A stretch of DNA of 64,000 bases from positions 1-64,000 of the IMG/VR virus record IMGVR_UViG_3300042397_001782; one strand, written 5' to 3'. The number at the start of each line of letters is the position of its first letter. Position 1 is the first letter of the stretch. Positions 20,501 through 47,010 of this stretch are shown in pieces. Origin of the DNA: a virus. The notes beneath the pieces are model-generated. The model was not told where the DNA came from and searched no databases. It worked only from the letters and a program-made list of their open reading frames with translations. The position numbers and the translations under genes were made by a program.

Positions 20501-23500
20501 AAAAATTGAAAATAGATTATATCAAAATGGGGCTAACGCTCAGAATCAAGATTGGCTTTCAGAAAAAGATGATAAAGGGAGGTCTACGGGCAACTTAATA
20601 ACTAAGTTAAATTTCTCTAAATACGCCAATTTAGCTGCAAAAAATCTAAAAGATAAATTGCGTAATTTACCTTTTGCTAGTAATGCCCAAATCCAAGGCT
20701 TACAAAAAATAGCATTTAACTCTCCTAAACAAGTATTTGATTCTCTTGGAGAATTATTAAAAGATAATAAAATAACTCAAGAAGAATTTGACCATGCAAA
20801 AAATTATTTAATGGCTGAAAAAGCTTTATATGATTTAGAGCATACAAATCCAAATTATACTTCCACTACACTAAGTAACAATAGTTTAGATGCGTTAAGA
20901 AACTATATTGACAGAAATATAGTAAATGTTAGAGAAGCATTAAATGATCCAAACTTTGATTGGACAAATGATGAAATAGAACTTATTTCTGATGACTTTG
21001 GGGATTTGGAATCTGCTCTGGAAGAGTTAATAGCCGAAAAAAGAGCATTATTAGAAGAAAAATATTTTACTGTAGATGAAGATAAAAGAGTTCTGCTAAA
21101 AGCAGATGGTACTCCTGACTTAGACAAAAATGGTAATGAAAAATTAAACCCTATTTATAAAACTGAACTTGATTTTGTAGAAGGACTTCTAAATAAATAT
21201 AAGTATAAAATAGGGTATGCTACAGATACTGATGGAAATTTTTATCCTGATAAGATAAACATAGATGTATGGGGGGATGAATTTTTGTTTGAATTATCCG
21301 ACTCTCACCCTGATGCTAAAGAATACGCCAACAAAGAGTACTTAGACATAGAAGAGAAGGCTGCAAAAGGAGATGCTCTAGCTGTGGCAAAGATGGACAT
21401 GGTTAACTACATTAAAAAATGGAATAAACAAAATAACCTTCCTTCTAATTTCTTACCTAAAGGATCTAAAAAAGACTCTGAATATTTACAAATGTTCGGT
21501 AACAAAAGATTTATAAATATCTTTGGAGTAAATTTTGATGTAGCTAAAATAATTACTCAAGTAGTAATTCCTTTTGCAGGAGTGGCAAACACTCCTATGT
21601 TATTTGGAATAGCGGCAGGACTAGTCAATCCTTTGACACTAGCAGTATCTTCTACGGTTTTTTCATATTTCTTCTGGAATAGAATATCCAATCAAGCTGT
21701 TAAATTTGCATCAATATATGTAGATACTTATGGAAGAATAAATGATACTAAAGGGTTAAAGAGATTTGCAGTTGCTTTAGCTAAGTCACTAGGGGTATAT
21801 AACAAGGCTTTACAGTTTGAATTAAATAAAGACGATAATATTATTAGTACAGGAGACCCTGAAAAGTCAGAATCTGTGATAAGTAAAAGGGTAGACCTTT
21901 GGCTAAAGAATATGTTTCATAAGATTTTTCGTGCTGTAGATGCAAAACAAGCTAATAAGAAAAACAAAATAGATGTTATTCCTAGAAAATATACAGAATA
22001 TATTGAACCAGCTTTACGTTCCACCCAATACTTAGATAATTTTAAATCTTTCATATACGCCAATAAAGAGTATGAAAATAAATCTATGTATGAAGGAGCT
22101 ATAAGAGCTATGAATGATTTATATAGAAAAAGAGAGGATAAAGAAGGAAATATTATTGGAGACGATTATTTAGAGGCTATTTACATTGATAGATATTGGT
22201 ATAATAAAATATATCCAAATTCTTTTGCAATGAAATTTATTAGAGTGCTGGCAGCTCAAACAGGTTTCAACCAATTGACTGGTAATCTTAATACGGGTGT
22301 AAAGAATATTCTTACAGGTATTAGTATGATTTCAGCCAATGGTGGGTTATTAGCTACTATGCCTGCTATAAAAGATGCTACAATATACTCTCTTAATATG
22401 CTTTTATTAGCAAAAGGGAATAATTCAAGGGTAGCTCTTGAGCAAAATAAAATTCAAATGATTAAAAAACATTTGAGATCAAGTAGTTTTGGTGGCATTG
22501 TTGATTTTGATTATTCTGATTCTTCATTGGTACAAAAATTAAGGCTGAATGACGGAAAAATAGTAAGTGAGTTAGGAGAGTCTTTTATTAGTAGTGTTCT
22601 TGTATATAAATTTTTAAGAGACACAAAACTAATAGATGAGAATGGTAAAAAAATTGACATTATTAAGCATCTAATCATAAAAGATGGAAGGCTTTCTTTT
22701 GATGACAAGGTTGCTAAAAAAATATATTTCAATAATATTAATGAAATACAAAACGCAGAAGACCTACAACTAGATCCTGGATATGTAAAAGATATTAATC
22801 TAAGGGCAATTGTACCTAAAAATCTACAGAAAGAGGCTTTAGTGCCTTTAGAAATAGATTTCTACCTTAATAGAACATTGCTACAAAATATAGATTATTT
22901 TAGACAAAGGTCTCAGGGTGTTTATAATATATTGTTAAAACCTAGAGTATCCACTACTGCCATTGGTACCGCTTTATTTATGTATCAGCACTATGTATTA
23001 CCTGGAGTATATACAGCATTCGGGAGAAAGAAAAATAATCCAAACTTAGAAGGTAGTGAAGAAGGATTTATAATTACACTGGCTAAAGCATTAAAAAGAG
23101 GAGTTATTACAAATAGATTTAAAGATAAACTATCCCCTGATAGTGTCAATAATATTATGAGACTAAATAATATTAAAACAAAAGGATTGTTAGAAGACTT
23201 GGGAGTATTATCAAATGTATTTTTATATTTCTCAAAAAATAAAAATATAGTTACACAATCTTTATTAGAAGCTGCAGAATCACAAGAAAAAGCAATAAAA
23301 TTTGCAGAAGAACAAGATGCAATTGTAGCTCAAGGGGGAGAGAGAAAAGAAGGCCCAGCTTATTATGCAGGATTTAAGGGTAAAACTAAAGAAGAAATCT
23401 TTAAAGAATTATTGATAGAAGCCAATAAGCAACAGAGATTGAATCAATATGAAGCAGATAACTATAAAAAAGTGGCGAGCATTTTAGCTATGTATCTTCT

Positions 23501-24113
23501 TTTAAAGGCTGCATTGAAATTTGTCTACCCGCCTCTAGAGGAGGAAGAAGTTGCTACATACATGGCTTCTGTAACTGAAGTTGTATCAAGTGAACTTTTG
23601 AGAACTTGGGTTCCTTTTTTAGAAGGAAGACTTGGATTTTCTTGGAATTTAAACCCAGTGGGAATAAAAGCCAACGAAGGCTCAATTGGCTTTGATTTAA
23701 GAAAAATCTCCCCTATTGCAGGTACTGTAGATGATTTAGCTAAAAATATGTACTGGTCTGGATCTGTTGGCTTATATAAATTAACAGGGGTAGTGCCATT
23801 TTCACAAGAGTATGGTAAAAAATTAATGGATGTAACAGGGGGAGAAATTCCTTTGATGAAAACAAAATACTACTATGATAAAGAGGGGTATGTTACGAGG
23901 GAAGTTAATGTATTGGATGAAACCGTAAAAGACTTCTTGATAGGAAATAGACTTAGAGACGCTATGCAAAGTAGCGAATTAAGAAGAGATAAATATAATG
24001 AATTAGGTATACCTCAAGGTGAACTAGCAAATATGATTTACAAGTTGAGAAATGGTTACTACAAAGCTTATGGTAGAAACTTAGAAGAAGAAATAAAAGT
24101 TTCTCAAGAATAA
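17583..24113 (+). CDS. Giant putative ejected virion protein with a GNAT-like insert, an inactive MPTase-like domain and hydrophobic segments
   Basis: 2176 aa; EEVAH in place of HExxH; the C-terminal QGVY...GTALFMYQHY...FG...EG region resembles giant proteins of crAss-like phages (from memory); the only Cys is at position 4. Confidence 0.65.
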   Translation: MAKCSLPYVEKRFRESNPQLADKLNDIGLKVFEDISNSTLFDRKEGNFVFNEEGTEERNSQNDFVTKLNTDLGAEVVREVEKKVSVNVLPLVTEEDLRTGSQIASQVNPALRDVESTAKDIESKRIATDAKIKRKDLFDGVGEFSTQLGGSDKAAVPISHKEKNGIEIVEYAHPETGSVDVIVTGKSDNDFVGFYRIYENGKPTNKWSSKFENQSRNKDDFKTMISGIQEMLPAGHEYTEKTSISTDGLRIWNQQLNRGYELQYDENGKLKTNRVFINGDAIVNELGIPVEKGDFEKIKVKTREDFEKVKAKLLPYLEKFGLDESSIKWISGNVEITPQNEKAFASTASVKIDLPVLKKSESLLSKEQLPALEDVEEFKSSEELPDSFLTLSDFEEPAYTPTTPETHPERVAPLAPEPMKSIPQQWEEYTNLKDRTDLTPDEELDLAVYRAKFDMFDSPSQYEKVMSDPTPKAFVSFREKNLEKLLLSFADKFGITIANIEDFQKQYFEKTGKFIPANGVANLFEKVIYVSEGNTDALTEEVAHFIIAMLPKDGELYQNLKQYISRTREYELFYDKYLAQYDGDVDKTEEEIMGKVFKNALQDKEETVPLSVRSVVKRIINYISDLFSDDKMEYLNSLNQLKKMFFSENLAEGLDAANINYDELYQLNFEITGKETDAVLKERSDKFNLGANLLIENLEDTLSNIRQQAIESNQTEALRSSNYLLSILGKKTEQDADKAKILSSMVFSSVATIRRLQGSFNEFDKLNIPKTLETDFNRDNLIKLSYDDYNKSLSKLASYINYLQSLYSLSKSIESTSKLMKLESNDMIAFKKIIYDLDPSITENDEIIKAFDLLDGEGVKVMAAKIESIYLKNVKQILDIYMSALNTEDQKRFLNYQNEVDFANTDAKTIADKNNNIIDYSKGIFSNIKSLFSKGITPVTMQNDTFIQSVDRFVSAMEQMGKERASKEVAEVQKIENRLYQNGANAQNQDWLSEKDDKGRSTGNLITKLNFSKYANLAAKNLKDKLRNLPFASNAQIQGLQKIAFNSPKQVFDSLGELLKDNKITQEEFDHAKNYLMAEKALYDLEHTNPNYTSTTLSNNSLDALRNYIDRNIVNVREALNDPNFDWTNDEIELISDDFGDLESALEELIAEKRALLEEKYFTVDEDKRVLLKADGTPDLDKNGNEKLNPIYKTELDFVEGLLNKYKYKIGYATDTDGNFYPDKINIDVWGDEFLFELSDSHPDAKEYANKEYLDIEEKAAKGDALAVAKMDMVNYIKKWNKQNNLPSNFLPKGSKKDSEYLQMFGNKRFINIFGVNFDVAKIITQVVIPFAGVANTPMLFGIAAGLVNPLTLAVSSTVFSYFFWNRISNQAVKFASIYVDTYGRINDTKGLKRFAVALAKSLGVYNKALQFELNKDDNIISTGDPEKSESVISKRVDLWLKNMFHKIFRAVDAKQANKKNKIDVIPRKYTEYIEPALRSTQYLDNFKSFIYANKEYENKSMYEGAIRAMNDLYRKREDKEGNIIGDDYLEAIYIDRYWYNKIYPNSFAMKFIRVLAAQTGFNQLTGNLNTGVKNILTGISMISANGGLLATMPAIKDATIYSLNMLLLAKGNNSRVALEQNKIQMIKKHLRSSSFGGIVDFDYSDSSLVQKLRLNDGKIVSELGESFISSVLVYKFLRDTKLIDENGKKIDIIKHLIIKDGRLSFDDKVAKKIYFNNINEIQNAEDLQLDPGYVKDINLRAIVPKNLQKEALVPLEIDFYLNRTLLQNIDYFRQRSQGVYNILLKPRVSTTAIGTALFMYQHYVLPGVYTAFGRKKNNPNLEGSEEGFIITLAKALKRGVITNRFKDKLSPDSVNNIMRLNNIKTKGLLEDLGVLSNVFLYFSKNKNIVTQSLLEAAESQEKAIKFAEEQDAIVAQGGERKEGPAYYAGFKGKTKEEIFKELLIEANKQQRLNQYEADNYKKVASILAMYLLLKAALKFVYPPLEEEEVATYMASVTEVVSSELLRTWVPFLEGRLGFSWNLNPVGIKANEGSIGFDLRKISPIAGTVDDLAKNMYWSGSVGLYKLTGVVPFSQEYGKKLMDVTGGEIPLMKTKYYYDKEGYVTREVNVLDETVKDFLIGNRLRDAMQSSELRRDKYNELGIPQGELANMIYKLRNGYYKAYGRNLEEEIKVSQE
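17907..18709 (+). repeat. Imperfect 20 bp direct repeats flanking an in-frame 783 bp module
   Basis: cctgcattaagagatgtaga (17907) and cctgcattggaagatgtaga (18690), 17/20 identical; PALRDVE and PALEDVE. Confidence 0.6.
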
Positions 24114-26778: not shown

Positions 26779-27195
26779 TTATTTAATTTTTAAATTCATT
26801 ATTGGGTGTATTTCTGTAATACCATGAGTTTTATCAAAAACATAAGGTCCTTCTATTTCAATACTATCACCTTCTTTAGGTATAGTTATTTTATTTTTAT
26901 AAAACCAACAGATTGGAAATACTGATGGCACAGCACATACAATTTCCCCAACCATACATCCATTTTCATCTTTATAGTTGTTTTTTACCAATAATGAGCC
27001 ATCCCCTATCTTTAATCTTATATGTATGTCACCATCAATATCAGACTCGACTTTTTCAACTCTACCTTGTAATGTTTTAGATGATTCTAATACTACCAGT
27101 CTTTTGGGGTGATGCACTCTATTACAAGGACAATCTTCCTTTGAGATTAAACTTAATAATAATAAAACAACTATAGCTAATAATGTTAATTTCAT
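26779..27195 (-). CDS. Secreted OB-fold-like protein
   Basis: Signal peptide; DGDIHIRL...EIVC...G..V.D..HG..EIHP. Confidence 0.5.
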   Translation of the reverse strand: MKLTLLAIVVLLLLSLISKEDCPCNRVHHPKRLVVLESSKTLQGRVEKVESDIDGDIHIRLKIGDGSLLVKNNYKDENGCMVGEIVCAVPSVFPICWFYKNKITIPKEGDSIEIEGPYVFDKTHGITEIHPIMNLKIK

Positions 27196-27317: not shown

Positions 27318-28943
27318 TTACCCACTGCAAGAAGCACATTCTAGAATATTTCTTACAAAACTTTGAGCACTACTTTGACTAAACTGATAATACAGAGTTT
27401 TAATACCCTCTTCCCAAGCATATAAATATAGTTGATTAATATCTTTTACTGGTATAGAAGGATGAATAGTTATATTTAGAGATTGAGCCTGGTCTATAAA
27501 CTTCTGTCTTTGAGCTGCTTGTAAAATAATTTCTTTAGGAGATATTTCTAAAAATGTTTTAAAAACTTCTTTTGACGGGAAATTTAAGTGTTGAACTGAT
27601 CCATTGTTTTTGAGAATACTTTCCCAAACCTCAGTAGTGTTAAGTTCATACTTCTCTAACTCTTCAATTAAGAAAGGGTTTTTATATACAGTTTTAATTT
27701 TAGCTAAATCTTTAATGAAATAGTTAGATTTAATTGGTTCTATTCCCATACTTACTTGCCCTAAAATAAAAGAAGAAGATTTTGTAGGAGCAATAGCTAT
27801 CAATGTAGTGTTAGCAAATCCTTCTCTAATAGAGAATACTCCCTTTGTTTTACACAACTCTTGAGAAGCTTTTTCTGTTCTTTCTTTTAATATTTTAAAA
27901 ATACTATGATTATAGAGTTTTGCTTCTAATGATTCAAAATCAATTAGTTTTGATTGCAACAAAGAATGGTAGCCCAATACTCCTACTCCAATAGCTCTAT
28001 GATTTTTGGCAAATCTATAAGCTCTTTTCATACCAGGTAAATTCTCAGATTTTTGAATGAATTCATCTAAAACAGCATTTAAAAAAAGCGTATATATTTC
28101 AATAGCATCTGTATTTACAATCTCATCCCAATGTAAAAGATTAATACTACCTATACAACAAACAAAAGATTCAAATTCATTATTAGGTAATTGTATTTCA
28201 CTACAAAGATTACTATGATTAATTGTTAAACCCAAATCTTTATAAGGAGTGTTATTATTAGTGTTGTCTTTAAACATCAAATAAGGGAATCCAAATTCAG
28301 TTCTTTTTTCAATTACTTTTGCCCAAATCTTTCTCTTAGAGGAATCCCCCTCTTTCATTGAGATTAACCACTCGTCTGTAATAGTAATACCAAATTGTAA
28401 ATTCTGTATCGGATTACCATCACTTCCTATCTCCAAAAATTCATTTATGTCTTCATGCTCAATAGGAAGCCATATTGCACAAGCTCCTCTCCTAGATTCA
28501 CCTTGTTTACATGTGTCTATAACAGTGTCATATATTTTAGCATAGTGAGTAGGACCGTCAGCTAAACCTCCTGTAGAAATTTTAGTACCCCTAGATCTAA
28601 TGTTCCCTAAATAAGCAGAAGTCCCTCCACCATATTTAGACATTAAGCCTATTTCTCTTGCAGCATTTAAAATGCTATCCAAAGAATCATCTACATTTGA
28701 ACCATAGCAACTAATAGGTAATCCTTTATTTTTACCAAAGTTACTCCAAACAGGAGTGGATAAAGAATAAAAACCTCTCTGCATATAGTTTTCAAACTTA
28801 TCAGCAAATCCTTCAATTTTTAAGATTTTCTCTGCTGTGTAAGCAATATGCTTAATACGCTCTTCAGGAGTTTCTGTAATGTACCCTCTACTTAGGAAAG
28901 TTCTGCTTTCCTCATTTAACCAGTAATTTTTAAAATAAGTCAT
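27318..28943 (-). CDS. nrdA: Ribonucleotide reductase class I alpha subunit (short, no ATP cone)
   Basis: PISC, GGG, SNLCSEI, IAPTKSSS, KTLYY, C-terminal CASC. Confidence 0.95.
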   Translation of the reverse strand: MTYFKNYWLNEESRTFLSRGYITETPEERIKHIAYTAEKILKIEGFADKFENYMQRGFYSLSTPVWSNFGKNKGLPISCYGSNVDDSLDSILNAAREIGLMSKYGGGTSAYLGNIRSRGTKISTGGLADGPTHYAKIYDTVIDTCKQGESRRGACAIWLPIEHEDINEFLEIGSDGNPIQNLQFGITITDEWLISMKEGDSSKRKIWAKVIEKRTEFGFPYLMFKDNTNNNTPYKDLGLTINHSNLCSEIQLPNNEFESFVCCIGSINLLHWDEIVNTDAIEIYTLFLNAVLDEFIQKSENLPGMKRAYRFAKNHRAIGVGVLGYHSLLQSKLIDFESLEAKLYNHSIFKILKERTEKASQELCKTKGVFSIREGFANTTLIAIAPTKSSSFILGQVSMGIEPIKSNYFIKDLAKIKTVYKNPFLIEELEKYELNTTEVWESILKNNGSVQHLNFPSKEVFKTFLEISPKEIILQAAQRQKFIDQAQSLNITIHPSIPVKDINQLYLYAWEEGIKTLYYQFSQSSAQSFVRNILECASCSG

Positions 28944-29931
28944 CTTCTGTAATTGATTTAGTTTTTTTTGAATAATCTATTTGCTTTTTATAAAAAAAGT
29001 CCCCCTCTTTTGTTGAAGTTATTTCTACTTCAAACCACATTGTTTTCTCAAGTAAAGTAATATCAGGACTAAACACAGGTTTCATACCTATTTTTATAAG
29101 TGAGTTGTTAAACCTATTCATGATAAAATGCTGAATAACTTCTTTAGATAAAAAGTCTAATTCTCCTTTTTCAAATATCCAATCTATTACTCCACATTCA
29201 GCTATATATGCTTTTTTACACGCAGAATAAACTAAATTTTCAAATTCTTCATCAAACCATTCTGGGTTTTCTCTTTTAATAATATTAATTATTTCCACCC
29301 CAAAATTACCGTGAACATCTTCTTCTTTACTTGTAGCTTCCACTACATTAGATATACCTTTAAAAAGATTTTTTTCTTTATTAAAAGACATCATAATTAA
29401 GAACTGACTGAACAAAGAAACGTGTTCTATAAATAGAGAGAATAATAATACGCTTTTTGTATACATCTTGTTGTCCTTGCTTCTAGTACCATCTAAATAT
29501 TTCATTAAATAGTTTATTCTATTCTTAATAGCAGGAACTTCTATTAAAGTTTCAAACTCTTTCTGCAAACCCAATACATTTAATAATTCAGCATAAGCAT
29601 CTTTATGTCTAACTTCACTTTCTGCGAAGGTCATACCTACATCTCCAATTTCAGTTTTAGGCATTCTTTTATACATATCTGCCCAAAAAGTTTTTACTTT
29701 AACTTCTATTTGAGCGATAGCTAACATTGTTCTTTTTATTGCCTCTCTCTCAGAATCATTTACTTTTATCTTAAAGTCATTTATATCTGAAGTAAAGTTA
29801 AATTCAGATTCTAGCCAATAAGAATGTCTTATAGCTTTTTTATACTCCAATAGCTCAGGATACTCATAAGGCAGTATATTTTCTCTAAATTGAAAAATAT
29901 TTTTACCTAATTCTTTGTCATTTTGTGTCAT
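28930..29931 (-). CDS. nrdB: Ribonucleotide reductase class I beta subunit
   Basis: ESEVRHKDAY, EEDVH, DFF; start set at MTQND because the longer start lies within the promoter. Confidence 0.95.
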   Translation of the reverse strand: MTQNDKELGKNIFQFRENILPYEYPELLEYKKAIRHSYWLESEFNFTSDINDFKIKVNDSEREAIKRTMLAIAQIEVKVKTFWADMYKRMPKTEIGDVGMTFAESEVRHKDAYAELLNVLGLQKEFETLIEVPAIKNRINYLMKYLDGTRSKDNKMYTKSVLLFSLFIEHVSLFSQFLIMMSFNKEKNLFKGISNVVEATSKEEDVHGNFGVEIINIIKRENPEWFDEEFENLVYSACKKAYIAECGVIDWIFEKGELDFLSKEVIQHFIMNRFNNSLIKIGMKPVFSPDITLLEKTMWFEVEITSTKEGDFFYKKQIDYSKKTKSITEDDLF

Positions 29932-29991
29932 TTTTTTTGATAATTTTTTAAAAGTTAATAATAATTTTTTTACAGGGTAAAAAAGGGGTTG

Positions 29992-29999
29992 CAAAAGTA
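29992..29999 (-). promoter_or_regulatory. Bacteroidota -7 promoter element for nrdBA
   Basis: TACTTTTG(CA). Confidence 0.6.
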
Positions 30000-30011
30000 T
30001 AAATAAATTAT

Positions 30012-30449
30012 TTAATTGGTAAATATATTTTTATAAGCATTGTTGATTAAATACTTTTCACAATTAGGGATTTTAAGCAAAAAATCCAACTCATATCTAT
30101 AACAAATTCTCTCTTCTTCGGATGCAGTAGAAAAGAAATTAGAGTTGTAGAAAAATAAATGTGCTGATTCGTGAACAATAGCTGATGCTATATTATTTAA
30201 GCTACCTCCGCTTACATCATAAGTGGAAAGTATAATAGTGTTATCTCCCTCTATGGAGGAGAATTTTAGATTTGAAAATCCAATGTTTTTACAGTGCTTT
30301 AATAAAAGATTGTATTTATGGGAATCGTATTTCTTAATTAAGATTAAGGCAGAATCCACTCTGTTTTTCCAATTAGGACCAACATCAGCAATTTTTATTT
30401 GACCAAAAGAAGATGTAGTAAAAATTAATAGGAAAATAAATAATTTCAT
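30012..30449 (-). CDS. Secreted zincin-like metallopeptidase
   Basis: Signal peptide MKLFIFLLIFTTSSFGQ; IVHESAH...EE. Confidence 0.6.
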   Translation of the reverse strand: MKLFIFLLIFTTSSFGQIKIADVGPNWKNRVDSALILIKKYDSHKYNLLLKHCKNIGFSNLKFSSIEGDNTIILSTYDVSGGSLNNIASAIVHESAHLFFYNSNFFSTASEEERICYRYELDFLLKIPNCEKYLINNAYKNIFTN

Positions 30450-30453
30450 GTTG

Positions 30454-30461
30454 CAAAAATA
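30454..30461 (-). promoter_or_regulatory. Bacteroidota -7 promoter element
   Basis: TATTTTTG(CA). Confidence 0.45.
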
Positions 30462-30475
30462 CAACAATTTTTTTA

Positions 30476-30916
30476 TTAAGGCATCTTTTTTATAATTTTT
30501 TCTAGAGCTTTTTTTATAGAAGTTGAGACAGTCATTTTAGAAAAAGGAATTCCATCTGTAAGTTCTAACATAACTGCATGAATCTCAGACTCTGACTCTC
30601 CATATTCTTCATATTTCTTTCCTTTATATTTTAATTGAATGCCAATTTCTGTCGTTTGAACAGATTCTTCTATACCCATAATCCTTAAACTTTTTTTAGG
30701 AAGACCAAAATAAAATATATCAATGAATATTTGTTCTCCACTATCTGACAGACAAAACTTAGAAGAAAGCATATCTTCTGCCATTTGTTTCACCCCAAAT
30801 TTTACATCTCTATTTCCTAATTCTTTTATCTCAACAGAGGACTTAATCTCTTGAATTTTTACACATTGTGAGTAGGAAAGAAAAGGAATTGCTAATAGTA
30901 ATAATAAAAATCTCAT
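30476..30916 (-). CDS. Secreted protein, possibly a distant CsgG/TolB_N-like fold
   Basis: Signal peptide; FGVKQMAEDML and the C-terminal FSK..VSTSIKKALE parallel the CsgG-like gene. Confidence 0.45.
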   Translation of the reverse strand: MRFLLLLLAIPFLSYSQCVKIQEIKSSVEIKELGNRDVKFGVKQMAEDMLSSKFCLSDSGEQIFIDIFYFGLPKKSLRIMGIEESVQTTEIGIQLKYKGKKYEEYGESESEIHAVMLELTDGIPFSKMTVSTSIKKALEKIIKKMP

Positions 30917-30918
30917 AG

Positions 30919-31908
30919 TTAATAAGTTATTTGCCCTCTATATCCAGGGGCTATTAAATAATAGTTTGCATTTGTAGTCCCTGATATAGGAGAATTAATT
31001 GTAATAGAATTTAATCCAGGAATAGTGGCTCTTAAATCTGTAGTTCCTGTATTTAAAGAAGAATATTGTGTTGTGGTAAATAACCTAGAAGCAGTCATTG
31101 TAACCCAATTATTAACCCTTCCTGTTCTTCTTAAATTAATATAGTATTGGTCAGATATAGTTATCCTACCATCTCCATTTACATCATACATATTCCAATG
31201 TAAACTTCTTCTAGCGGTTCTACCTAATATAACATTTGAGACATTTTGCATATCTGTTAAAGATAAAGTTGTTACAGGAGTGGGGGCATTTATTTGAATA
31301 TACCATTCTGTAGCAGGGTTACTTGTCTCATTAATAGTGTATCTACCTGTTGCATCTGTGTATATTGTTTTATGTAATACCCAAGAAGTAAAAGTTACAA
31401 TATAATCAAATTCAATTACATAAGGAAGAGCTATACCATTAGGTAAGTCGTTCCATCTACCTCCTCCAACGAATTGAACATAATCTTCATTCCCTGCGTT
31501 ATTAGGTTCTCCAGGATTCCAAGAAGAATATGAGTAGGGTTCTCCTGTAACCCATCTCCATTGTCCCTCTACTACTTCATCTGTTAATCCTATCCATCCT
31601 GAAGGCCATAATCCAAATAGAAAGTTATTTTCAGCAGCACTTGTCACTGTTACTAAATATCCTCCCATATTTGCACAAGCTTGTCTAGCATCTGTCCAAA
31701 ACGCATTTCCTGTAGATCTATAATAAGAATGTCCATTATAGTTTTGTTGAGATGTAAATCCTGTTAATGTAGGAGTGGTTCTTTTATATATTTGTATTGG
31801 AACATTAATTGCTCCTGTACCATTAGCATTATAAATAAATCCTGAATAGGTAAAGTTTTGCCCTATAGCTATATTACAAATAAAAAATAATATAATTATA
31901 ATTCTCAT
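30919..31908 (-). CDS. Secreted C-type lectin plus dockerin-like protein
   Basis: W..A...C...GGYL...EN...WIGL.D...EG.W.W...W.PGEPNN...WND; YDVNGDGRITISD. Confidence 0.85.
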   Translation of the reverse strand: MRIIIILFFICNIAIGQNFTYSGFIYNANGTGAINVPIQIYKRTTPTLTGFTSQQNYNGHSYYRSTGNAFWTDARQACANMGGYLVTVTSAAENNFLFGLWPSGWIGLTDEVVEGQWRWVTGEPYSYSSWNPGEPNNAGNEDYVQFVGGGRWNDLPNGIALPYVIEFDYIVTFTSWVLHKTIYTDATGRYTINETSNPATEWYIQINAPTPVTTLSLTDMQNVSNVILGRTARRSLHWNMYDVNGDGRITISDQYYINLRRTGRVNNWVTMTASRLFTTTQYSSLNTGTTDLRATIPGLNSITINSPISGTTNANYYLIAPGYRGQITY

Positions 31909-33179
31909 AATAATAATCTTGTGCCGAAAGTTATAGTGTTATTTAATGCACTTTGCCCCACTTGCCAAGCCCCTCCAATATTTATGTTTACTTTAAATCT
32001 TTTTGTCACTCCCACATTTACCCCCACACTAGGAAGCATTACAAAGGGAGATTTCATAAGTACATCGTTATAATAACTTACATAAGGAGAATATACAATT
32101 AAGTTTGTAAACTTAACATCTAGTCTTTTATGTAGTTTTAAATCATACATTCCCCCTGTTATAATAGCTGTACCTATAAAACCCTCTTTAAACACTTTCC
32201 CCATAGATAATGTTCCTAAATAGATAAGTTTTAACTTCTTAATCTTTTTAAATGTTTTCATTTGGCCAAAAGCTACAGTGGAATAGGCACTTCCTCCTCC
32301 CTCTAAAGAGAATGTTACAGTGCCAGAAGCTATTGTTATATTAGAAGGATTTATCCAAGCATAGAACCCTGTTATATTTGGCCCCGCCTGTGCAGATGTG
32401 TAATCAAATAATATTCCTGATGAGCACGCCCCATCCCATCTCATAGAAGTGTAACCTCCTGTCCCTTTAACTCCTAAAGGTTTCTCAGAATCTTTAAAGC
32501 TAAATCCTACAAAATCAGATGAAGCTACAATAGCGGGTTTCCCCCCTTCTTTACTTCCAGGTTTATTGGCTTTGCCTCCTCCACCACTAGACCCTCCTGC
32601 TCCTCTCACAGAGTTGGTACCTCCTGCTGAAATATTTGTGCTACCTCCAGAAGCTTCTTCAGATGAAGATCCTCCACTAGGTGCACCACTACTTGTAGAA
32701 CCTACACCCCCTAAGTTACCCCCTGACTCTGTAGATACAGAAGGTCCTTCTCCCATTGAACTTGAGCTTGGCATTATAGAAGATGCTATATTTGCTGACA
32801 TACTAGATGTAGCTGAACCAACAGTTTCTGCAATGTTTGATATAGAGTTTATAATTCCTACAGTGTTAAGCACTTGTCCTTGTCCAATATTCATAACTGT
32901 GGGAGTACCAATAGCCTCTCCACAAGGTGAACTGTTTTTAAATTTATTGAATAAATTATCTGACCATGTTTGAAACGCACCTGAAACAAAATCATAGTAT
33001 GTGAAATTTTCTGTGTTTCCATAATAGGAAACTTTTGTACTCCCATTAATGGGGACACTAATAGTTTTAGCTACTTGTGTACAAGGGTCAGTATATTGAT
33101 AGGAATAGGTTTGAGAGTAAACAAAAGTGTTTACATTTAATAAGAGTAATAAAGCTATTAGTTTATTTATTAAAGACAC
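31905..33179 (-). CDS. Secreted protein with Gly/Ser linker and C-terminal outer-membrane beta-barrel-like domain
   Basis: Signal peptide; low-complexity GS stretch; alternating beta strands ending ITFGTRLLL. Confidence 0.6.
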   Translation of the reverse strand: MSLINKLIALLLLLNVNTFVYSQTYSYQYTDPCTQVAKTISVPINGSTKVSYYGNTENFTYYDFVSGAFQTWSDNLFNKFKNSSPCGEAIGTPTVMNIGQGQVLNTVGIINSISNIAETVGSATSSMSANIASSIMPSSSSMGEGPSVSTESGGNLGGVGSTSSGAPSGGSSSEEASGGSTNISAGGTNSVRGAGGSSGGGGKANKPGSKEGGKPAIVASSDFVGFSFKDSEKPLGVKGTGGYTSMRWDGACSSGILFDYTSAQAGPNITGFYAWINPSNITIASGTVTFSLEGGGSAYSTVAFGQMKTFKKIKKLKLIYLGTLSMGKVFKEGFIGTAIITGGMYDLKLHKRLDVKFTNLIVYSPYVSYYNDVLMKSPFVMLPSVGVNVGVTKRFKVNINIGGAWQVGQSALNNTITFGTRLLL

Positions 33180-33867
33180 CTTTTTTAATTAATCTCGTTA
33201 TAACCCTAGATGCTGCGGTTTCAAGAGATTTCTTGGTGGTGATTCCTATAGTGGATTGATTAAATTTAATATCATCAACATCTGCAAGGATGGAAGATTT
33301 TTTAACAGTATTAGCTTCTCCTAATCCTGAACCCACTATGATTTCTCCTGTAGTAGCATCTACAAATTTACATTGCAATCCCAACCTAGTTGTTTGAGTT
33401 GCCTCTGCTTTGCCATTCATTTTTACCACTTCATCTTCTGATACAGAAAAATCATATACTTCAATATAAACAAAGTAGTTAGCTAATAATACATTACCAA
33501 ACACTTCCATCTTATTTGAAGAGATTCCTTTTCTAGATGCTTTATCCTGAGAAATCATTTTATTTTTAATCTCTGCTTTATCTTCAGTGATTACAAAACG
33601 GTTTGTATTTAAGAAATATTCAGTGACAATGTTGGTTACACCAAGCCCCACTTTCTTTTCTTTAAGTTCAGGATAAGATTCGTATAATTCTTCATTAAAC
33701 CCTATTTTAAGAATAGAAATAGGAATTTGCAATGTATCATCATAATCTGATACAACTGCCAAACTCTGTTTCTTTTCAAAATCAGCTACATAAGCTTCTG
33801 TTTTAATAGAACCTATTTGAGAGAAAGCAAAAAGAGGTAAAAAGATTAGACTACCAAGGACTTTCAT
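33163..33867 (-). CDS. CsgG/HfaB-family protein
   Basis: GLGV..IV.E......RFV.TE...A.Y.V...V.DF...KFVDATTGEI..GSG.GE. Confidence 0.7.
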   Translation of the reverse strand: MKVLGSLIFLPLFAFSQIGSIKTEAYVADFEKKQSLAVVSDYDDTLQIPISILKIGFNEELYESYPELKEKKVGLGVTNIVTEYFLNTNRFVITEDKAEIKNKMISQDKASRKGISSNKMEVFGNVLLANYFVYIEVYDFSVSEDEVVKMNGKAEATQTTRLGLQCKFVDATTGEIIVGSGLGEANTVKKSSILADVDDIKFNQSTIGITTKKSLETAASRVITRLIKKGVFNK

Positions 33868-34150
33868 CTTCAGCTTTTTCTTTTTTAGCGGGCTTCTCTA
33901 CAACTCTTTCTTTAATGATTGTAGTAGGAGCTGCACTTTGCTTTTGTTGATTAGTGTTTTCAATATTCACTACAATTGGCGCCACAGGAGATGCTGTTTC
34001 AGTTTTAGCTTCTTCCTTGTGCTCAGTTTCTCCCCCAAACAAATGTGTAGAAGCCCACACACCTGCTGCTGTAACTAATGTACCTATTGCTCCAATAATA
34101 GTTTTTTTCAAACTATCCATAGAACCATCATTTTGAATTTCTTCTGACAT
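33851..34150 (-). CDS. Small single-TM protein
   Basis: TIIGAIGTLVTAAGVWA hydrophobic helix and a disordered tail. Confidence 0.6.
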   Translation of the reverse strand: MSEEIQNDGSMDSLKKTIIGAIGTLVTAAGVWASTHLFGGETEHKEEAKTETASPVAPIVVNIENTNQQKQSAAPTTIIKERVVEKPAKKEKAEDESPW

Positions 34151-34161
34151 AATATTTATTT

Positions 34162-36081
34162 TTATTGCTTAATAATTTTTGATACTAATACTCCTTTATT
34201 ATTTAGGAGTAATTTTGCTGTATAAACTCCTGCTGATAAGTTTCCTAAATCTGCTCTATAAGTGAATTGCCCTTTAGCAACAAGTTCGTCTAACACTTTA
34301 ATACGCAAACTTCCCAACATATCATATACCGCCAATGTGGCATTTGTGCTTTCTTCTACATTAAAAACAATATCTATAATTCCAGTTGTAGGATTTGGAT
34401 AAACTTCCATAGTGTTAGCATCTATAATTCTACCAATATTAGTGGGAGACATTTTTCTAACTTGTATAATATTATGACTAGGAGTTATAGATAAATCTTT
34501 TGAGGTAAAGTTTCCTGCAAATTTATTAGAGGTGAATAGAGGACTCACACCCCAATCTGCTTGTGGTTTCAAAGCTATAAATTGGAAAGTGATTATTTCA
34601 TCTCCATTTTTTAAAGCATTGTTATTAGTGGTAGGATCATAGCCTCCCCAAGATATTTCTCCTTCATTAGGGTTCACATAAGTAATCCATTTTTGAGCAT
34701 TTGCACTTGAATAGATTCCTTTGAAAGATAATAAGCTACTATCATATTTCAATCCAAATTGCAAAGCTAATACACTAACACTATCTGACTTTAAACTTAC
34801 AGGAATGCTAACCATATTTCCTTCGTTAACATTTAACTTAGGAATAGTTAATTCAATATTATTTGTTGGGAAGTCATATTCCACTCTAGTGTCAATAACT
34901 CTATGAGTTTGTGGGTCTAAGTCTTGCGGACCATTTATAAGGATTTCCATTGGAGTTGTTCTAGCCATATTGTATCCCGTAGAGTTGGCATCTCCAGGAA
35001 CCACTACATAATATGTAACCGAGTCAGGTTGTCCTGGTAATATATCAAAGTAAAAATTAGTTACACCTGAAATAGTTGATGTATAGTTTGTTGTAGGCGT
35101 TCCTGTAATTGTAGCATATTCTGCTGCTGTAAAGAATTTAATATCTTTTACATTATTAGACCAACTTGTTATTCTTCCTGCCACTCTTCCAAATACTCCA
35201 AAAGCATCCGCCACTGTAATATTAGAGTTTCCATTTACATCCGCTGTATAGAAATCAAAATCTTTCGGAGTACCAACTCCTAACACCCATTGGTTAATCA
35301 ATTGAGCGTCTGTTGTAGATACTACATTACCTACACCCATTGTATCTCCTTTAACAGCCAATCTAACATCCCAGAATGTTGTATCTAATATTTCTGAGAA
35401 TGAGAATTTACCTGATGTATTAGTTTTATAAGAGTTTACTTGAGTCCAAGATGACCCTGCTTTAGGCTTCTTTTCTAAAGATAAAGTTAAATTTTTAGCT
35501 CCAGTTCCATTCACATTTGCGAATGTACCTTTGAAGCTAAGTTTCGGTCTTTTGAATTCTCCATTATAACTGTATAGTCCTAAAGTTGTGTCCATCCCTG
35601 CTTGTGTAGAAGCATATTGTGGAAAGGTAGATACTCCTGAAAATTTCAAAGAGTCTATAAAAGTTAAATTATTAAAAATAGATGGAGCAGCATGTGTAAG
35701 AGTAAGTTCAAAAGTCTCTCCATTAGCAAGGGAATAAGCACTACTATTACCTGTATAAATTAATGTTATAGTTGAAAATCCATTTATAGAATCCGTTACA
35801 TATTGTAAATCAAGATTGGTTGTACTTCCCACTAAGCTAACCACTGAGTTTTTAAAAGCAACTTTGTCATAAAAAACTCTGAATTGCACACCTGTTACTT
35901 TTGTAGTGGTGGTATTTTTTAATGTAACTCTTGCTTTTGTAAATCCTTGTGTAGTTGTTCCTACATTATAAGCGGTGTCAATTAATGCCCATATTCCGCT
36001 GGAAGGTGCTGCTGGACCTGTCTGTCCATAAATGTTCATACAAGCTAACAAGCTTATAATCAATAATTTAAGTGTTTTCAT
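34162..36081 (-). CDS. Cohesin-dockerin-cohesin protein with a T9SS type A C-terminal sorting domain
   Basis: Signal peptide; GVQFRVFYD and ALQFGLKYDSSLL (cohesin-like); ADVNGNSNITVADA (dockerin); VYPNPT...VYDMLG...LSAGVY...KIIKQ (CTD). Confidence 0.85.
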   Translation of the reverse strand: MKTLKLLIISLLACMNIYGQTGPAAPSSGIWALIDTAYNVGTTTQGFTKARVTLKNTTTTKVTGVQFRVFYDKVAFKNSVVSLVGSTTNLDLQYVTDSINGFSTITLIYTGNSSAYSLANGETFELTLTHAAPSIFNNLTFIDSLKFSGVSTFPQYASTQAGMDTTLGLYSYNGEFKRPKLSFKGTFANVNGTGAKNLTLSLEKKPKAGSSWTQVNSYKTNTSGKFSFSEILDTTFWDVRLAVKGDTMGVGNVVSTTDAQLINQWVLGVGTPKDFDFYTADVNGNSNITVADAFGVFGRVAGRITSWSNNVKDIKFFTAAEYATITGTPTTNYTSTISGVTNFYFDILPGQPDSVTYYVVVPGDANSTGYNMARTTPMEILINGPQDLDPQTHRVIDTRVEYDFPTNNIELTIPKLNVNEGNMVSIPVSLKSDSVSVLALQFGLKYDSSLLSFKGIYSSANAQKWITYVNPNEGEISWGGYDPTTNNNALKNGDEIITFQFIALKPQADWGVSPLFTSNKFAGNFTSKDLSITPSHNIIQVRKMSPTNIGRIIDANTMEVYPNPTTGIIDIVFNVEESTNATLAVYDMLGSLRIKVLDELVAKGQFTYRADLGNLSAGVYTAKLLLNNKGVLVSKIIKQ

Positions 36082-36107
36082 TTTATAGATTTGTAATTTA
36101 GTAACTA

Positions 36108-36115
36108 CAAAAATA
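36108..36115 (-). promoter_or_regulatory. Bacteroidota -7 promoter element heading the secreted-protein operon
   Basis: TATTTTTG(TA). Confidence 0.5.
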
Positions 36116-36146
36116 TAAAAAAATTTTAATTTTATTTGAGATTATT

Positions 36147-36395
36147 TTAATCAAATAGTTCTTCTGTGTTAATATTATGTTTAGATAAAATATATTGTAT
36201 TTTTTCAAAAACAATCTCTAAAGCACCATATTTATCAATATCTTCTTTACTATCAAGTTCAAACTCTAATTTTTTTTTAGTGTTATATATTAATTCAAAC
36301 AAAGCAGATGCCATAGCAGAACTTGCAACAGCTTGTTTAAAATCCCTATAATCATCAGGATCACTTAAATCGTAATCTATTCTTGCTTTTGCCAT
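36147..36395 (-). CDS. Hypothetical protein
   Basis: 82 aa ORF. Confidence 0.6.
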   Translation of the reverse strand: MAKARIDYDLSDPDDYRDFKQAVASSAMASALFELIYNTKKKLEFELDSKEDIDKYGALEIVFEKIQYILSKHNINTEELFD

Positions 36396-36401
36396 AATTT
36401 T

Positions 36402-36971
36402 TTATTTAATATTAGTATATAAAATTGTACTACTGTCTTTATTCACTTTGCATTTATAAAATATATCTTGGTGGGTTATGAATTGGTTAGTATTAAAGGG
36501 CCTTGTAATAATATGTGCCCCATTAGGTGTAGGTATCTCTGCTATAATATTTTTACCTCCAGGTTCACAATCATTAATTGCCTTTTGAATTTTAATAATA
36601 TCATTATCAGATACATCTTTAAAATCTATATCTATTATCCAATGCTCAAAATTAGATTTTAAGTTGTCGATAGATTCCTCAATTAATAAAGAGTAGTTTA
36701 ATTCTTGCTTCTCTAATTTTTTAGACAAGGTTTCTATTATTTTATATCCTAGTTTTTCTTTAGAATAAGAGCCTAGTTTAATATATACACTAGCATCTAA
36801 ATAATCCGCAATACGTTTCATTTCATCGTAATTAGCCATTAAATTTTGCAAACTATCTACCATGTAATGCTTAATTACTTTATTATTAGAGTTTTGTATG
36901 ACAAGTATTTCATAAAAACTACTATTTTGAAATACTAATAAAGGAATTATTTTTTTTAAATTGTCTTTCAT
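36402..36971 (-). CDS. Hypothetical protein with AEP-like motifs
   Basis: WIIDID and IPTPNGAHII. Confidence 0.45.
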   Translation of the reverse strand: MKDNLKKIIPLLVFQNSSFYEILVIQNSNNKVIKHYMVDSLQNLMANYDEMKRIADYLDASVYIKLGSYSKEKLGYKIIETLSKKLEKQELNYSLLIEESIDNLKSNFEHWIIDIDFKDVSDNDIIKIQKAINDCEPGGKNIIAEIPTPNGAHIITRPFNTNQFITHQDIFYKCKVNKDSSTILYTNIK

Positions 36972-36972
36972 G

Positions 36973-37284
36973 TTAAATAAGAGTTAAAATGTATGAAGAT
37001 ATTTTATATCCTGTAAAGGCACCTAATGCTGAAGGATAGGGGAATACCACTAATTTGCCTAAATCTGTAACGTATTTTGGCCTATTAATAATTTTGCTTA
37101 AAAATGTATAATAAACTATATAAGACCCCAAGACAGCAATATCAGATTTAGTAGAGACAAATACTATTATTATAGACCCTAGAAAGCCCCAAATAAAGTT
37201 ATCTCTGACTCCTTCCCATATTTCCTGTCTTGTAGCGTCTTTGTATTCTTTTACAATCCTATTTAGTGATTGTTTTTTTCTCAT
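36973..37284 (-). CDS. Small membrane protein
   Basis: Three hydrophobic segments; start at MRKKQ. Confidence 0.6.
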   Translation of the reverse strand: MRKKQSLNRIVKEYKDATRQEIWEGVRDNFIWGFLGSIIIVFVSTKSDIAVLGSYIVYYTFLSKIINRPKYVTDLGKLVVFPYPSALGAFTGYKISSYILTLI

Positions 37285-37504
37285 TTTTAGGAGTTTTTGG
37301 TTTAACCACTGGTTTTGTTTTAACCTCATCTAAAGCGGTCTGAAGTTTATCCAAATCTTTTAAGGTGTCTTCAAAAAATGTAACTGATTCTAGTAGATAT
37401 TCTTTGTATTCTTTGTTAATCCTTTTATATTCTTTTTGTAGAATGTAAATTGTCACCATCCCTAGTATGTTAGCGGCCAATAATATGTATTCAAGTGTGG
37501 TCAT
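37259..37504 (-). CDS. N-terminal TM plus coiled-coil protein
   Basis: YILLAANILGMVTIYIL followed by heptads. Confidence 0.55.
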   Translation of the reverse strand: MTTLEYILLAANILGMVTIYILQKEYKRINKEYKEYLLESVTFFEDTLKDLDKLQTALDEVKTKPVVKPKTPKNEKKTITK

Positions 37505-37594: not shown

Positions 37595-38038
37595 TTAAAA
37601 TCCTGTGCTGCCAAATCCCCCATCTCCTCTTTCAGTTGTAGGTAATTCATCCACTTCTTCAAATTCTATTTTAGGGTAAGGCATGATTATCAATTGCCCT
37701 ATTCTTTCTCCCACCTCATACATTGATTTTGCTTTTTCGTTTCCATTAGGCATTTTCATAGTAGGCTTGAACTTGAATTTTATTTCTCCAACGTATTGCG
37801 AATCTATAACTCCTACGGAATTTGTCAATGATTGTGTCACCTTGCAAATACTACTTCTTGGGAATATAAGCCCAACGTGCCCTTCTGGGATTTTTATAGC
37901 TAAGTCTGTTCCATACTCGTAATTTCCGAACTCATCAATAGTTAAGCTTGTAGCGGTTAAATCCATTCCTGCGTCTCCTGGCTTTCCGTAAGCTGGTATC
38001 ACCGCAAGTTCACTCAATTTTTTTATTTTTACTATCAT
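37595..38038 (-). CDS. dut: Trimeric dUTPase
   Basis: AGMDL, PRSS, GVIDS.Y.GE, RIGQL, RGDGGFGSTG. Confidence 0.97.
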   Translation of the reverse strand: MIVKIKKLSELAVIPAYGKPGDAGMDLTATSLTIDEFGNYEYGTDLAIKIPEGHVGLIFPRSSICKVTQSLTNSVGVIDSQYVGEIKFKFKPTMKMPNGNEKAKSMYEVGERIGQLIIMPYPKIEFEEVDELPTTERGDGGFGSTGF

Positions 38039-42336: not shown

Positions 42337-42759
42337 TCAAATGTCAAGCGTTATTTTACTTTTTTCTGTAAATTTTTTGTGACAATCTTTACAAAGCACC
42401 TCTAGCTTGCTTATATCCTCTACAAATAGCCTGTCGTGGAATGGTTTTATTTCGGAGTAATCCCTTAAACTACCACAGGGCTCAATGTGATTTACTTCTA
42501 CATCTTTTTTTAAGAACATTTTTTTACAATGATTGCATTGCCATTTTTTTAACAAGGCAGAATAAGCCCTTTTAAGTATCTCTTTTCTAAAAGGACAAGA
42601 GTATAACCACCTCTGTCTTAAAAAAGCTCTAATGGCACCAAAAAAAGCTGATTTGGTCATTGTACCTCCACAATATTCTCTCACTACTCTAGGATTAACT
42701 ACCTTTTTCTTTTTTCTAGGAGTTGTGGTGTTGGATTTTTTTACTGTCTTTCTTCTCAT
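42337..42759 (-). CDS. HNH endonuclease
   Basis: CNHC...VEVNHIEP...LEVLCKDCH. Confidence 0.85.
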   Translation of the reverse strand: MRRKTVKKSNTTTPRKKKKVVNPRVVREYCGGTMTKSAFFGAIRAFLRQRWLYSCPFRKEILKRAYSALLKKWQCNHCKKMFLKKDVEVNHIEPCGSLRDYSEIKPFHDRLFVEDISKLEVLCKDCHKKFTEKSKITLDI

Positions 42760-46179: not shown

Positions 46180-46226
46180 TTTATTAAATTTTGTGTTAAA
46201 ACTACATATATCTGTGACCGTTAGCG
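46107..46226 (+). repeat. attC-like site A (120 bp)
   Basis: cactaac..cagatatatgta / tacatatatctg..gttagcg. Confidence 0.8.
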
Positions 46227-46922: not shown

Positions 46923-46977
46923 AATTTAAAATTTAGTTTTCATAATCCCACACTGCGTATATGCTTTTACGTTATAG
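46847..46977 (+). repeat. attC-like site B (131 bp)
   Basis: cgctaac..gcatatacgca-a-tgtggg / cccaca-c-tgcgtatatgc..gttatag. Confidence 0.85.
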
Positions 46978-47010
46978 GTAAGTGCTACAACCATTCTTCG
47001 ATTAAACATT

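Follow-up and report, generated by a model that had tools for sequence, protein, structure and literature searches.

Phage genes that alter the host surface decide which infections follow and how many progeny get away, and the examples known to us are single proteins. The IMG/VR virus record IMGVR_UViG_3300042397_001782 raises the question of what a phage might do with a run of seven genes for exported and membrane proteins. In this study, we analyzed bases 1-64000 of this 119,980-bp record, which is rated 100% complete; this whole stretch of 64,000 nucleotides is referred to as the window. Seven contiguous open reading frames (ORFs), here named g1 to g7, occupy positions 30012-36081 of its minus strand with all reading frames intact. 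A first-pass annotation, made from the letters of the DNA, had described them as a phage-encoded kit for cell-surface assembly. That the block is phage-encoded is borne out by the complete record, in which terminase, portal and capsid genes are present.

Our answer, which we favour but hold tentatively, is that the block may be an accessory envelope module that, by way of the host Sec pathway and type IX secretion system (T9SS), assembles a complex with a lectin in or on the outer membrane. Such a phage module of seven parts, very common in lake phages, brings together a tag for host secretion, connectors of the cellulosome type, a lectin with an animal-type fold and membrane parts of the curli type.

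Gene order and export signals

From g1 to g7 the genes are separated by an 11-nt gap, a 17-nt overlap, a second 17-nt overlap, a 4-nt overlap, a 2-nt gap and an 8-nt gap, and 17 nt separate g7 from the gene of the ribonucleotide reductase (RNR) small subunit. Since the spacing ranges from a 17-nt overlap to an 11-nt gap, the seven genes are read as one operon. The terminator scan returned a single terminator-like site, on the wrong strand, and the operon may therefore extend into the RNR genes. A word of the TAnnTTTG type, which we take to be the Bacteroidota -7 promoter consensus, is located at 36108-36115 (minus strand), 27 nt upstream of the g1 start and inside a 65-nt gap, and is a candidate -7 promoter element. 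The promoter suggested at first pass thus keeps its motif match, but a sigma-70 scan of the region gave 55 sites against 42.5 +/- 6.1 expected, which is not above shuffles.

Inspection of the translations revealed a hydrophobic leader followed by Gln in six products (g1 and g3-g7) and a single transmembrane (TM) segment in g2. In alignments of the homologues, Gln occupies the post-leader column in 34/34 sequences for g1, 15/17 for g3, 11/14 for g4, 11/20 for g5, 30/31 for g6 and 29/30 for g7, the lower counts including ORFs whose chosen start is probably wrong. Gln at +1 after a Sec leader is the Q-rule of Bacteroidetes according to the accessible text of PMC5837995, and phage proteins following it were noted in P. 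gingivalis phages in the part available of PMC10367356. The six products are accordingly predicted to be exported with Sec leaders that obey the Bacteroidota Gln(+1) rule. ORFs, translations and the flanking RNR and dUTPase genes all agree with the earlier description of seven contiguous genes, six with signal peptides and one with a TM segment, among genes of nucleotide metabolism. No family of the PHROGs database was matched at E <= 0.01 by any of the seven products.

Domain structure of g1 and g5

The largest product, g1 (34162-36081, minus strand, 639 aa), consists of a signal peptide, an N-terminal beta domain, a beta-sandwich with a dockerin-like module at about residues 185-345, a cohesin at 409-515 and a T9SS type A C-terminal domain (CTD) at 560-639. 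Residues 560-637 matched Por_Secre_tail (PF18962) with 42.7 bits (cut-off 27, E 7e-11), TIGR04183 of NCBIfam was matched with 39.6 bits (cut-off 23, E 4e-10), and residues 409-515 matched Cohesin (PF00963) with 39.6 bits against a cut-off of 24.1 (E 8e-10). Among 34 non-redundant g1 homologues, Por_Secre_tail was found in 34, Cohesin in 30 and Dockerin_1 in 11 at E <= 0.01. These matches argue that g1 is a T9SS type A cargo bearing a C-terminal cohesin.

The remaining modules of g1 were recognized at the level of the family. The g1 family profile matched the solved dockerin 4uyp_B at E 3.5e-4 with both repeats aligned. The N-terminal domain of the window's own protein is without a Pfam match, and 19 of the 34 homologues weakly match Cohesin there (best E 3e-4). 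Alignment of this domain with the C-terminal cohesin by hhalign was weak (E 0.14), its leads in the Atlas score 0.90 and fall in clusters where 13-18% of the members carry Cohesin, and a profile search gave no PDB sequence match for it. The N-terminal domain may thus be a distant, weakly cohesin-like module. As a result, of the cohesin-dockerin-cohesin-CTD architecture proposed at first pass, the C-terminal cohesin and the CTD stand above the cut-offs, and the dockerin and the N-terminal cohesin are carried by family-level evidence. In phages of the type of Flavobacterium phage vB_FspM_immuto (hereafter immuto), g1 is split into a protein with the N-terminal domain and dockerin but no CTD and a second protein with the cohesin and CTD; this split supports a cohesin anchor that recruits dockerin-bearing partners.

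The g5 product (30919-31908, minus strand, 329 aa) has a signal peptide, a C-type lectin domain and a C-terminal beta-sandwich with a dockerin-like module, and it has no CTD. Lectin_C (PF00059) was matched with 59.7 bits against a cut-off of 22.6 (E 5e-16), and the g5 profile matched 109 PDB lectin chains at E <= 1, with mannose-type lectin structures at the best E of 6e-12. In 23 homologues E134, P135 and N136 are invariant and W152, N153 and D154 invariant or nearly so; EPN and WND are motifs of the Ca/sugar site. The C-terminal portion of about 160 residues is homologous to the middle module of g1 (27% identity over 161 aa, E 3e-13), and the dockerin of g5, like that of g1, is supported at the level of the family, although its first loop looks degenerate. 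Of the earlier description of g5 as a CTD-less C-type lectin with a dockerin, the lectin domain is thus above its cut-off and the CTD is indeed missing, and the dockerin is carried by the homology of its module with that of g1.

Roughly half of the aligned g5 homologues have, in place of the front part of the lectin, a domain that by eye resembles LamG/ConA, and these homologues retain the EPN/WND half and the dockerin module. Loci L016, L027, L041 and L084 are among those with a replaced front. The sugar-binding heads of g5 therefore appear to be exchangeable, and swapping of lectin heads on a constant dockerin module fits a display adaptor.

Lectin and Ig-like or beta-sandwich domains occur on virions, and a cohesin/dockerin pair could in principle join virion parts, so that the seven products might be read as virion components, for example decoration or adhesion proteins. 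We regard this as very improbable, and the data contradict it: six of the seven products carry Sec leaders, the T9SS sorting domain is present in all 34 g1 homologues, the block belongs to the replication arm, whose strand is not that of the structural genes, and none of its products matched a PHROG structural family.

Structure of the other five products

The most conserved gene of the block is g3 (33163-33867, minus strand, 234 aa). When its AlphaFold2 (AF2) model was searched with Foldseek, the best matches were CsgG (E 1e-8, probability 1.00, TM-score about 0.5). The VIA comparison with CsgG gave Z 12.2-12.9 and a root mean square deviation (rmsd) of 4.9-6.4 over 172-193 aligned residues, against Z of about 8-10 for other folds of the same class (LptE, PelC, FlgT, TraT; TraT itself 7.9). 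At the sequence level no Pfam or NCBIfam family, CsgG (PF03783) included, was matched at E <= 1, and the g3 profile found nothing useful among PDB sequences. The profile weakly matched true CsgG proteins (E 1.6e-5 and 8.4e-4), and one homologue at 33% identity passes the Pfam CsgG model with 25.7 bits against a cut-off of 20.8. The model thus points to a secreted protein with a CsgG fold, and the CsgG-like protein named by the first-pass annotation is upheld at the level of fold, the Pfam sequence match being absent. The small secreted protein g6 (30476-30916, minus strand, 146 aa), with a conserved Gln-x-Cys right after the leader in the alignment of 31 homologues, is related to the C-terminal half of g3: g3 as a query matches g6 at E 5.5e-4, and the g6 profile matches g3-type proteins. 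It is a shorter relative of g3.

The g4 product (31905-33179, minus strand, 424 aa) has a signal peptide, a small N-terminal domain with two conserved Cys and a long helix, a Gly/Ser-rich linker and a C-terminal barrel. In its AF2 model 12 strands are found at residues 216-423, with predicted local distance difference test (pLDDT) values by block mostly of 80-93, and the linker at 121-212 (about 90 residues) is disordered, with pLDDT below 50. The barrel matched EstA/NalP/BrkA translocators, NanC/KdgM, FapF and intimin in Foldseek at E 1e-6 to 1e-4. No Pfam family was matched at E <= 1, including the autotransporter beta-domain, and the g4 profile found nothing useful among PDB sequences. According to the model, g4 is a 12-strand outer-membrane barrel with a tethered N-terminal domain, in agreement with the barrel behind a Gly/Ser linker recognized at first pass. 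A type Va autotransporter was considered for g4; the 12-strand barrel fits (EstA, NalP, BrkA, EspP and Hbp translocators, E 1e-6 to 7e-5), but the family match is absent and the segment before the barrel is disordered, not helical.

FapF consists of an N-terminal domain, a long disordered linker and a 12-strand barrel. The layout of g4 is similar, and its barrel matched FapF chains at E 6e-6 to 1e-5. With the CsgG fold of g3, this raises the alternative of a secretion or fibre system, in which CsgG- and FapF-like parts would export an unfolded substrate, and fibres or matrix together with the lectin would clump infected cells with fresh hosts ('sibling capture'). The lectin and the cohesin and dockerin modules would then be adhesive parts, and sibling capture has been proposed for the csgGF genes of pelagimyophages (quoted in the part available of PMC9004378). 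We nevertheless consider this alternative quite improbable. No candidate amyloid subunit, CsgA/B/E/F protein or Fap partner was found among the seven genes, the six products other than g3 giving no match to the CsgE, CsgF, CsgA and CsgB families of Pfam and NCBIfam; the g4 barrel matches autotransporters and small porins such as NanC equally well; and phage Melnitz, although its system is different, showed no clumping according to the accessible text of PMC9004378.

The g2 product (33851-34150, minus strand, 99 aa) has one TM segment and a low-complexity tail rich in Pro, Lys and Glu, which ends in acidic residues and a terminal Trp that is invariant in 31 homologues; no family was matched, holin phrog_526 being reached at E 0.095. 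The last gene, g7 (30012-30467, minus strand, 151 aa), has its conserved start more likely at the ATG at 30449, which gives about 145 aa. An HExxH motif, a downstream Glu-Glu and YxxE are invariant in its 30 aligned homologues. Searches of Pfam and PDB gave no match for g7, and its distant members have sub-threshold matches to SprT-like, DUF6782 and YbeY families. In a set of 1.84 billion representatives 266 clusters were found, and the nearest Atlas clusters are 100% viral. Of the HExxH peptidase reported earlier, the motif is thus confirmed across the family, but a Pfam or PDB family to support the function was not matched; g7 is best described as a putative secreted zincin-like protein outside the curated families, predicted to be a peptidase from its invariant HExxH.

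Distribution, mobility and selection

A total of 86 loci, comprising the best 80 viral relatives, five loci from metagenome-assembled genomes (MAGs) and the immuto locus, were compared; many are ended by contig ends. With tblastn, g3 was found in 86 of them, g1 in 85, g2 in 84, g4 and g5 in 82 each, g6 in 67 and g7 in 62, some of the g5 matches being cross-hits to the g1 module. Clustering of ORFs gave g3 in 86, g2 in 79, g1 in 78, g4 and g6 in 72 each, g7 in 62 and g5 in 55. In wider searches g3 had 5961 homologous protein clusters among 6432 candidates, and a scan of viral contigs gave at least 379 confirmed relatives among 593 pattern matches. The carriers span 4-kb fragments to 343-kb genomes. 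For the major head protein of the window's virus, five other carriers, of which two are 100% complete, gave no credible match, the sole hit being 26% identity over 118 residues of a 2778-aa ORF (E 2.5e-4). The genes that flank the block in the window recur in only four close relatives, and RNR genes are also near the block in immuto and L043. Taken together, these comparisons indicate a mobile module, not recognized at first pass, that is common to many phages with unrelated capsids and different flanks.

In bacteria the block was rarely found, and the bacterial genomes being samples, this rarity applies to the genomes searched. The g3 profile was strong in two of 401 Flavobacteriaceae genomes, namely the search centre itself (12.6-kb contig) and a 248-kb contig on which an endolysin-like gene adjoins the block; two further Flavobacteriaceae genomes matched weakly, through ordinary csgG-DUF4810-GNA1162 operons. 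Of 401 Bacteroidota genomes, the search centre was the single match at E <= 1e-10, and the g4 profile matched one of 401 genomes. Among 50,697 GenBank phage records g3 was found only in immuto (four records of one species), which is the only cultured carrier. The MAG loci L005 and L007, flanked by endolysin and tail-fibre genes, are read as phage contigs, and L096, in which an endolysin-like gene is the sole phage mark beside genes for an ATP-dependent protease and Hsp20, is probably one; L004 and L006 are on short contigs of 2.6 and 12.6 kb. The comparison of phage with bacterial genomes called for at first pass therefore came out on the phage side, with the block in the 86 loci examined and rare in the bacterial genomes searched, and the block appears to be maintained by phages.

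One locus of a candidate division KSB1 MAG (L008, 6.8 kb) was considered as a bacterial ancestor of the core. At 516-3591 it holds, in phage order, a small TM ORF, a g3 homologue (the one at 33% identity that passes the Pfam CsgG model, with one TAG stop inside the g3 match), a 414-aa ORF whose sequence, by inspection, looks like a leader, a linker and a barrel, and a g3/g6-like protein, and these genes adjoin a histidine kinase gene. An ancestor is not claimed, with one strong g3 match (and three moderate ones) in 151 genomes of the KSB1 phylum and a g4 profile that misses the 414-aa ORF (E 0.06, no match).

All seven genes are under purifying selection. The ratio of nonsynonymous to synonymous divergence (dN/dS) was 0.024-0.137 in all 14 comparisons of the seven genes with L011 and L012; rows for L020 were left out, since dS exceeded 1 (saturated) and the g6 row was a cross-hit to g3. 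The block was also found in sequencing runs. In 20 lake or freshwater DNA runs, five of which may be the source of the record, 84% or more of the block's sampled words are present. In run X7 one contig of 7809 bases covers 29665-37473, from the RNR small subunit through the seven genes into the upstream genes and thus across both junctions, and contigs of runs X6, X8 and X19 each bridge a single junction. Among the 24 runs listed, no RNA run holds the block. The idea of a decaying host fragment or an assembly chimera, for which no support was found (G+C is slightly higher at 32-36 kb), is contradicted by intact frames, dN/dS of 0.02-0.14, the spanning contig, the freshwater runs and the rarity of homologues in the bacterial genomes searched, and we give it next to no credence. 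The two findings that the first-pass annotation had named as fatal to its reading, virion parts and a decayed or chimeric block, were thus not made: selection is purifying, the genes are rare in bacteria, and they are contiguous with their flanks in independent assemblies.

Proposed role and the link with lysis genes

On the reading that we favour, an accessory envelope module, the host T9SS would export g1 and anchor it on the surface, and the cohesin of g1 would capture the dockerin modules carried by g5, the lectin, and by further copies of g1. The products g2, g3, g4 and g6 would form an inner- and outer-membrane part serving as an anchor or as a route for partners without a CTD, and g7 may trim or mature a component. 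The first-pass idea, in which g1 would polymerise and display the CTD-less lectin, is thus supported in part, by the phage origin of the block, the predicted export of its products, the T9SS cargo g1 with its cohesin, and a lectin that lacks the sorting domain but has a module in common with g1. A sugar-binding protein would then coat the infected cell and the debris left after lysis, and this coat could block the receptors that this phage or its rivals use, so that superinfection would be excluded and fewer progeny lost on debris. Receptor masking is favoured because it would explain the lectin together with the usual place of the block beside lysis genes and a secreted nuclease. This nuclease (Endonuclease_NS; its leader is followed by Gln at +1) adjoins the block in 15 of the 86 loci, for example at 12030-12623 of L081, and also in immuto, where it is gp12 (L001, 11923-12501).

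Several results weigh against this reading. Receptor masking is a step that we purely infer. The type I dockerin model (PF00404) gave 16.5 and 19.8 bits for g1 and g5, below its cut-off of 22.9. The g3 model has a pLDDT of 69, which is moderate confidence, and the window's g3 has no Cys near the leader, unlike the lipobox of CsgG, although some homologues carry one. Pores of the size of CsgG and FapF are too small for a folded lectin (pore sizes from the part available of PMC9004378), so that g5 could not reach the surface through them once folded. Finally, the surroundings of the block in most carriers, on which the first-pass annotation is silent, bring in lysis. A glycoside hydrolase family 19 (GH19) endolysin, 68-80% identical between loci, was found within the fetched flanks in 59 of the 86 loci, directly upstream of g1 or downstream of g5 or g7, and in the clustering of ORFs the endolysin was the most frequent neighbour after the seven genes (58/86). 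Two-TM ORFs of two kinds recur, one of 120 aa inside the block (42 loci) and one of 93 aa (24 loci). This linkage of endolysin and two-TM ORFs points towards lysis over display. Other neighbours are a 199-aa ORF (25/86), which by eye resembles a peptidoglycan enzyme but is without a Pfam match, and a phosphoesterase (22/86).

The alternative that follows is a lysis-linked outer-membrane device, in which the CsgG-fold proteins, the barrel and the TM protein would gate or breach the outer membrane or time lysis, with the lectin and scaffold as accessories. A pinholin- or secretin-like lysis timer has been speculated for the csgGF genes of Melnitz (accessible text of PMC9004378). The genome under study nevertheless has a lysis cluster of its own at 93.9-96.1 kb (93886-96138, plus strand), outside the window. 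It encodes a 142-aa multi-TM ORF, Peptidase_M15_3, a small two-TM ORF, a GH19 endolysin and a 153-aa ORF with an N-terminal TM segment that looks coiled-coil; the two-TM ORF is a homologue of the 93-aa ORF mentioned above (51% identity, E 2e-19). The block of this genome does not lie with its holin and endolysin genes. Because the cluster is about 59 kb away on the other strand, the seven genes are separable from lysis genes, and they can work, or at least persist under selection, away from them. The immuto block, too, has RNR and replication genes as its neighbours. How a T9SS-tagged cohesin protein and a lectin would help to breach a membrane is not obvious. Envelope accessory genes, moreover, often adjoin lysis genes in other phages, as lambda bor does. 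For these reasons we consider a lysis device unlikely.

A more specific version of the envelope module would be a self-contained display machine of freshwater Bacteroidota phages, with a T9SS-anchored cohesin scaffold, exchangeable dockerin-tagged lectins and CsgG-type and barrel parts of its own, switched on around lysis and masking glycan receptors on the dying cell and its debris against adsorption of progeny and rivals. In this full form we find it doubtful. If the lectins are displayed, the block would represent a new viral means of editing the cell surface, as well as a natural display system of modular design for Bacteroidota; a role in lysis, if that is the true one, would supply a missing piece in the account of how the outer membrane is opened by phages of this phylum.

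Genome context

The minus strand of the window at about 24-59 kb forms an arm of replication and nucleotide metabolism, and the block is sited in it between the dUTPase gene (37595-38038, minus strand) and the genes of the RNR large and small subunits (27318-29994, minus strand). The arm also encodes a primase, a Sak4-like protein, helicases, a family A DNA polymerase, an exonuclease and two methyltransferases. The plus strand at 64.9-114.6 kb carries the structural genes (terminase, portal, major head protein and tail-fibre genes) and an endolysin gene, and this arm continues into giant plus-strand ORFs at 1-24 kb of the window. G+C is 0.34-0.35 at 32-36 kb and 0.29-0.30 in the adjacent bins. 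The DNA polymerase shares 28-31% identity with its counterparts in crAss-like phages and in a Leptolyngbya phage, and a tRNA scan of the window found none. The data as a whole suggest a lake phage of a Flavobacterium-type (Bacteroidota) host.

Other features of the window were recorded. Among the giant ORFs continuing the structural arm, a 749-aa protein with an ART-PolyVal ADP-ribosyltransferase domain (Pfam E 5.5e-10) is encoded at 15218-17467 (plus strand). The plus-strand ORFs of 2172 aa (6725-13243) and 2176 aa (17583-24113) had no match in PHROG and Pfam searches, nor had those at 100-2580, 2570-5311 and 5314-6723. A homing-endonuclease-like ORF (14527-15228, plus strand; phrog_314, E 2e-23) lies between the giant ORFs, and an HNH endonuclease ORF (42337-42759, minus strand) adjoins the DNA polymerase gene. 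The two methyltransferase genes of the replication arm, both for DNA methyltransferases, are neighbours at 46221-48120 (minus strand). Just downstream of the RNR genes, a 138-aa ORF (26779-27195, minus strand) has a hydrophobic leader and several Cys, and no family was matched by it.

Comparison with known systems

The literature search, with subscription journals and supplements outside its scope, returned no paper on the block. The nearest reports concern its parts. Genes csgG and csgF without csgA/B are described, in the accessible text of PMC9004378, for pelagimyophages (HTVC008M group) and the Methylophilales phage Melnitz; the hosts lack them, and the roles proposed for them are lysis timing, uptake and sibling capture. 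The likeness to the present block is a phage-encoded CsgG-fold outer-membrane protein without csgA/B. The Melnitz-type genes, as far as the available text goes, are Pfam-recognizable csgG and csgF of phages of Proteobacteria, whereas here g3 has no Pfam CsgG match and csgF was not found; moreover, the CsgG-fold gene here is accompanied, in phages of Bacteroidota, by six others, among them those for a T9SS cohesin/dockerin protein, a lectin and a barrel. Phage-encoded T9SS cargo was reported once, for 'Cryophage', as a 'unique occurrence' (part available of PMC7468147), and type A sorting domains are known in contigs of crAss-like cluster 2 (part available of PMC6949934). Like g1, these proteins have type A sorting domains and presumably use the secretion system of the host, but in the portions of these sources at hand they are single enzymes or BACON/PA14 proteins and not a multi-gene block with membrane parts.

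Cellulosome scaffolds resemble the block in the Pfam-level cohesin, in dockerin-like repeats alignable to the ScaB dockerin and in the presence of both modules in one protein, as in adaptor scaffoldins. Unlike cellulosomes, the block has a lectin as its only carbohydrate-active module and no enzymes, and would be anchored by a T9SS domain and not by sortase or S-layer homology (SLH) domains. Small outer-membrane lipoproteins or barrels that alter the cell surface or exclude infection are exemplified by Bor and Lom of lambda, Llp of T5 and the plasmid protein TraT. TraT shares a broad fold class with g3, but Bor, Lom, Llp and TraT are single proteins without a lectin, cohesin/dockerin modules or T9SS domain.

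The one cultured relative is the block of immuto (MW353175; host Flavobacterium sp. LMO8), in which immuto26A_13 to _19 correspond to six of the seven genes in the same core order and are annotated as hypothetical, lectin or cohesin proteins only. Identities are 50% for the lectin, 31% and 28% for the two genes that correspond to g1, 57% for the TM protein, 67% for the CsgG-fold protein, and 27% each for the linker-barrel and the small secreted protein. As in the window, the block is near RNR, among early or replication genes. Differences are that immuto is a myovirus of 160 kb, that g1 is split, that the lectin gene leads the block and the secreted endonuclease gene follows it, and that g7 was not found in the stretch examined. 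Judged by their listing, the papers that name immuto include none on the block. With immuto and Flavobacterium sp. LMO8, a cultured pair of phage and host is available, and the question raised by the block is directly testable in it.

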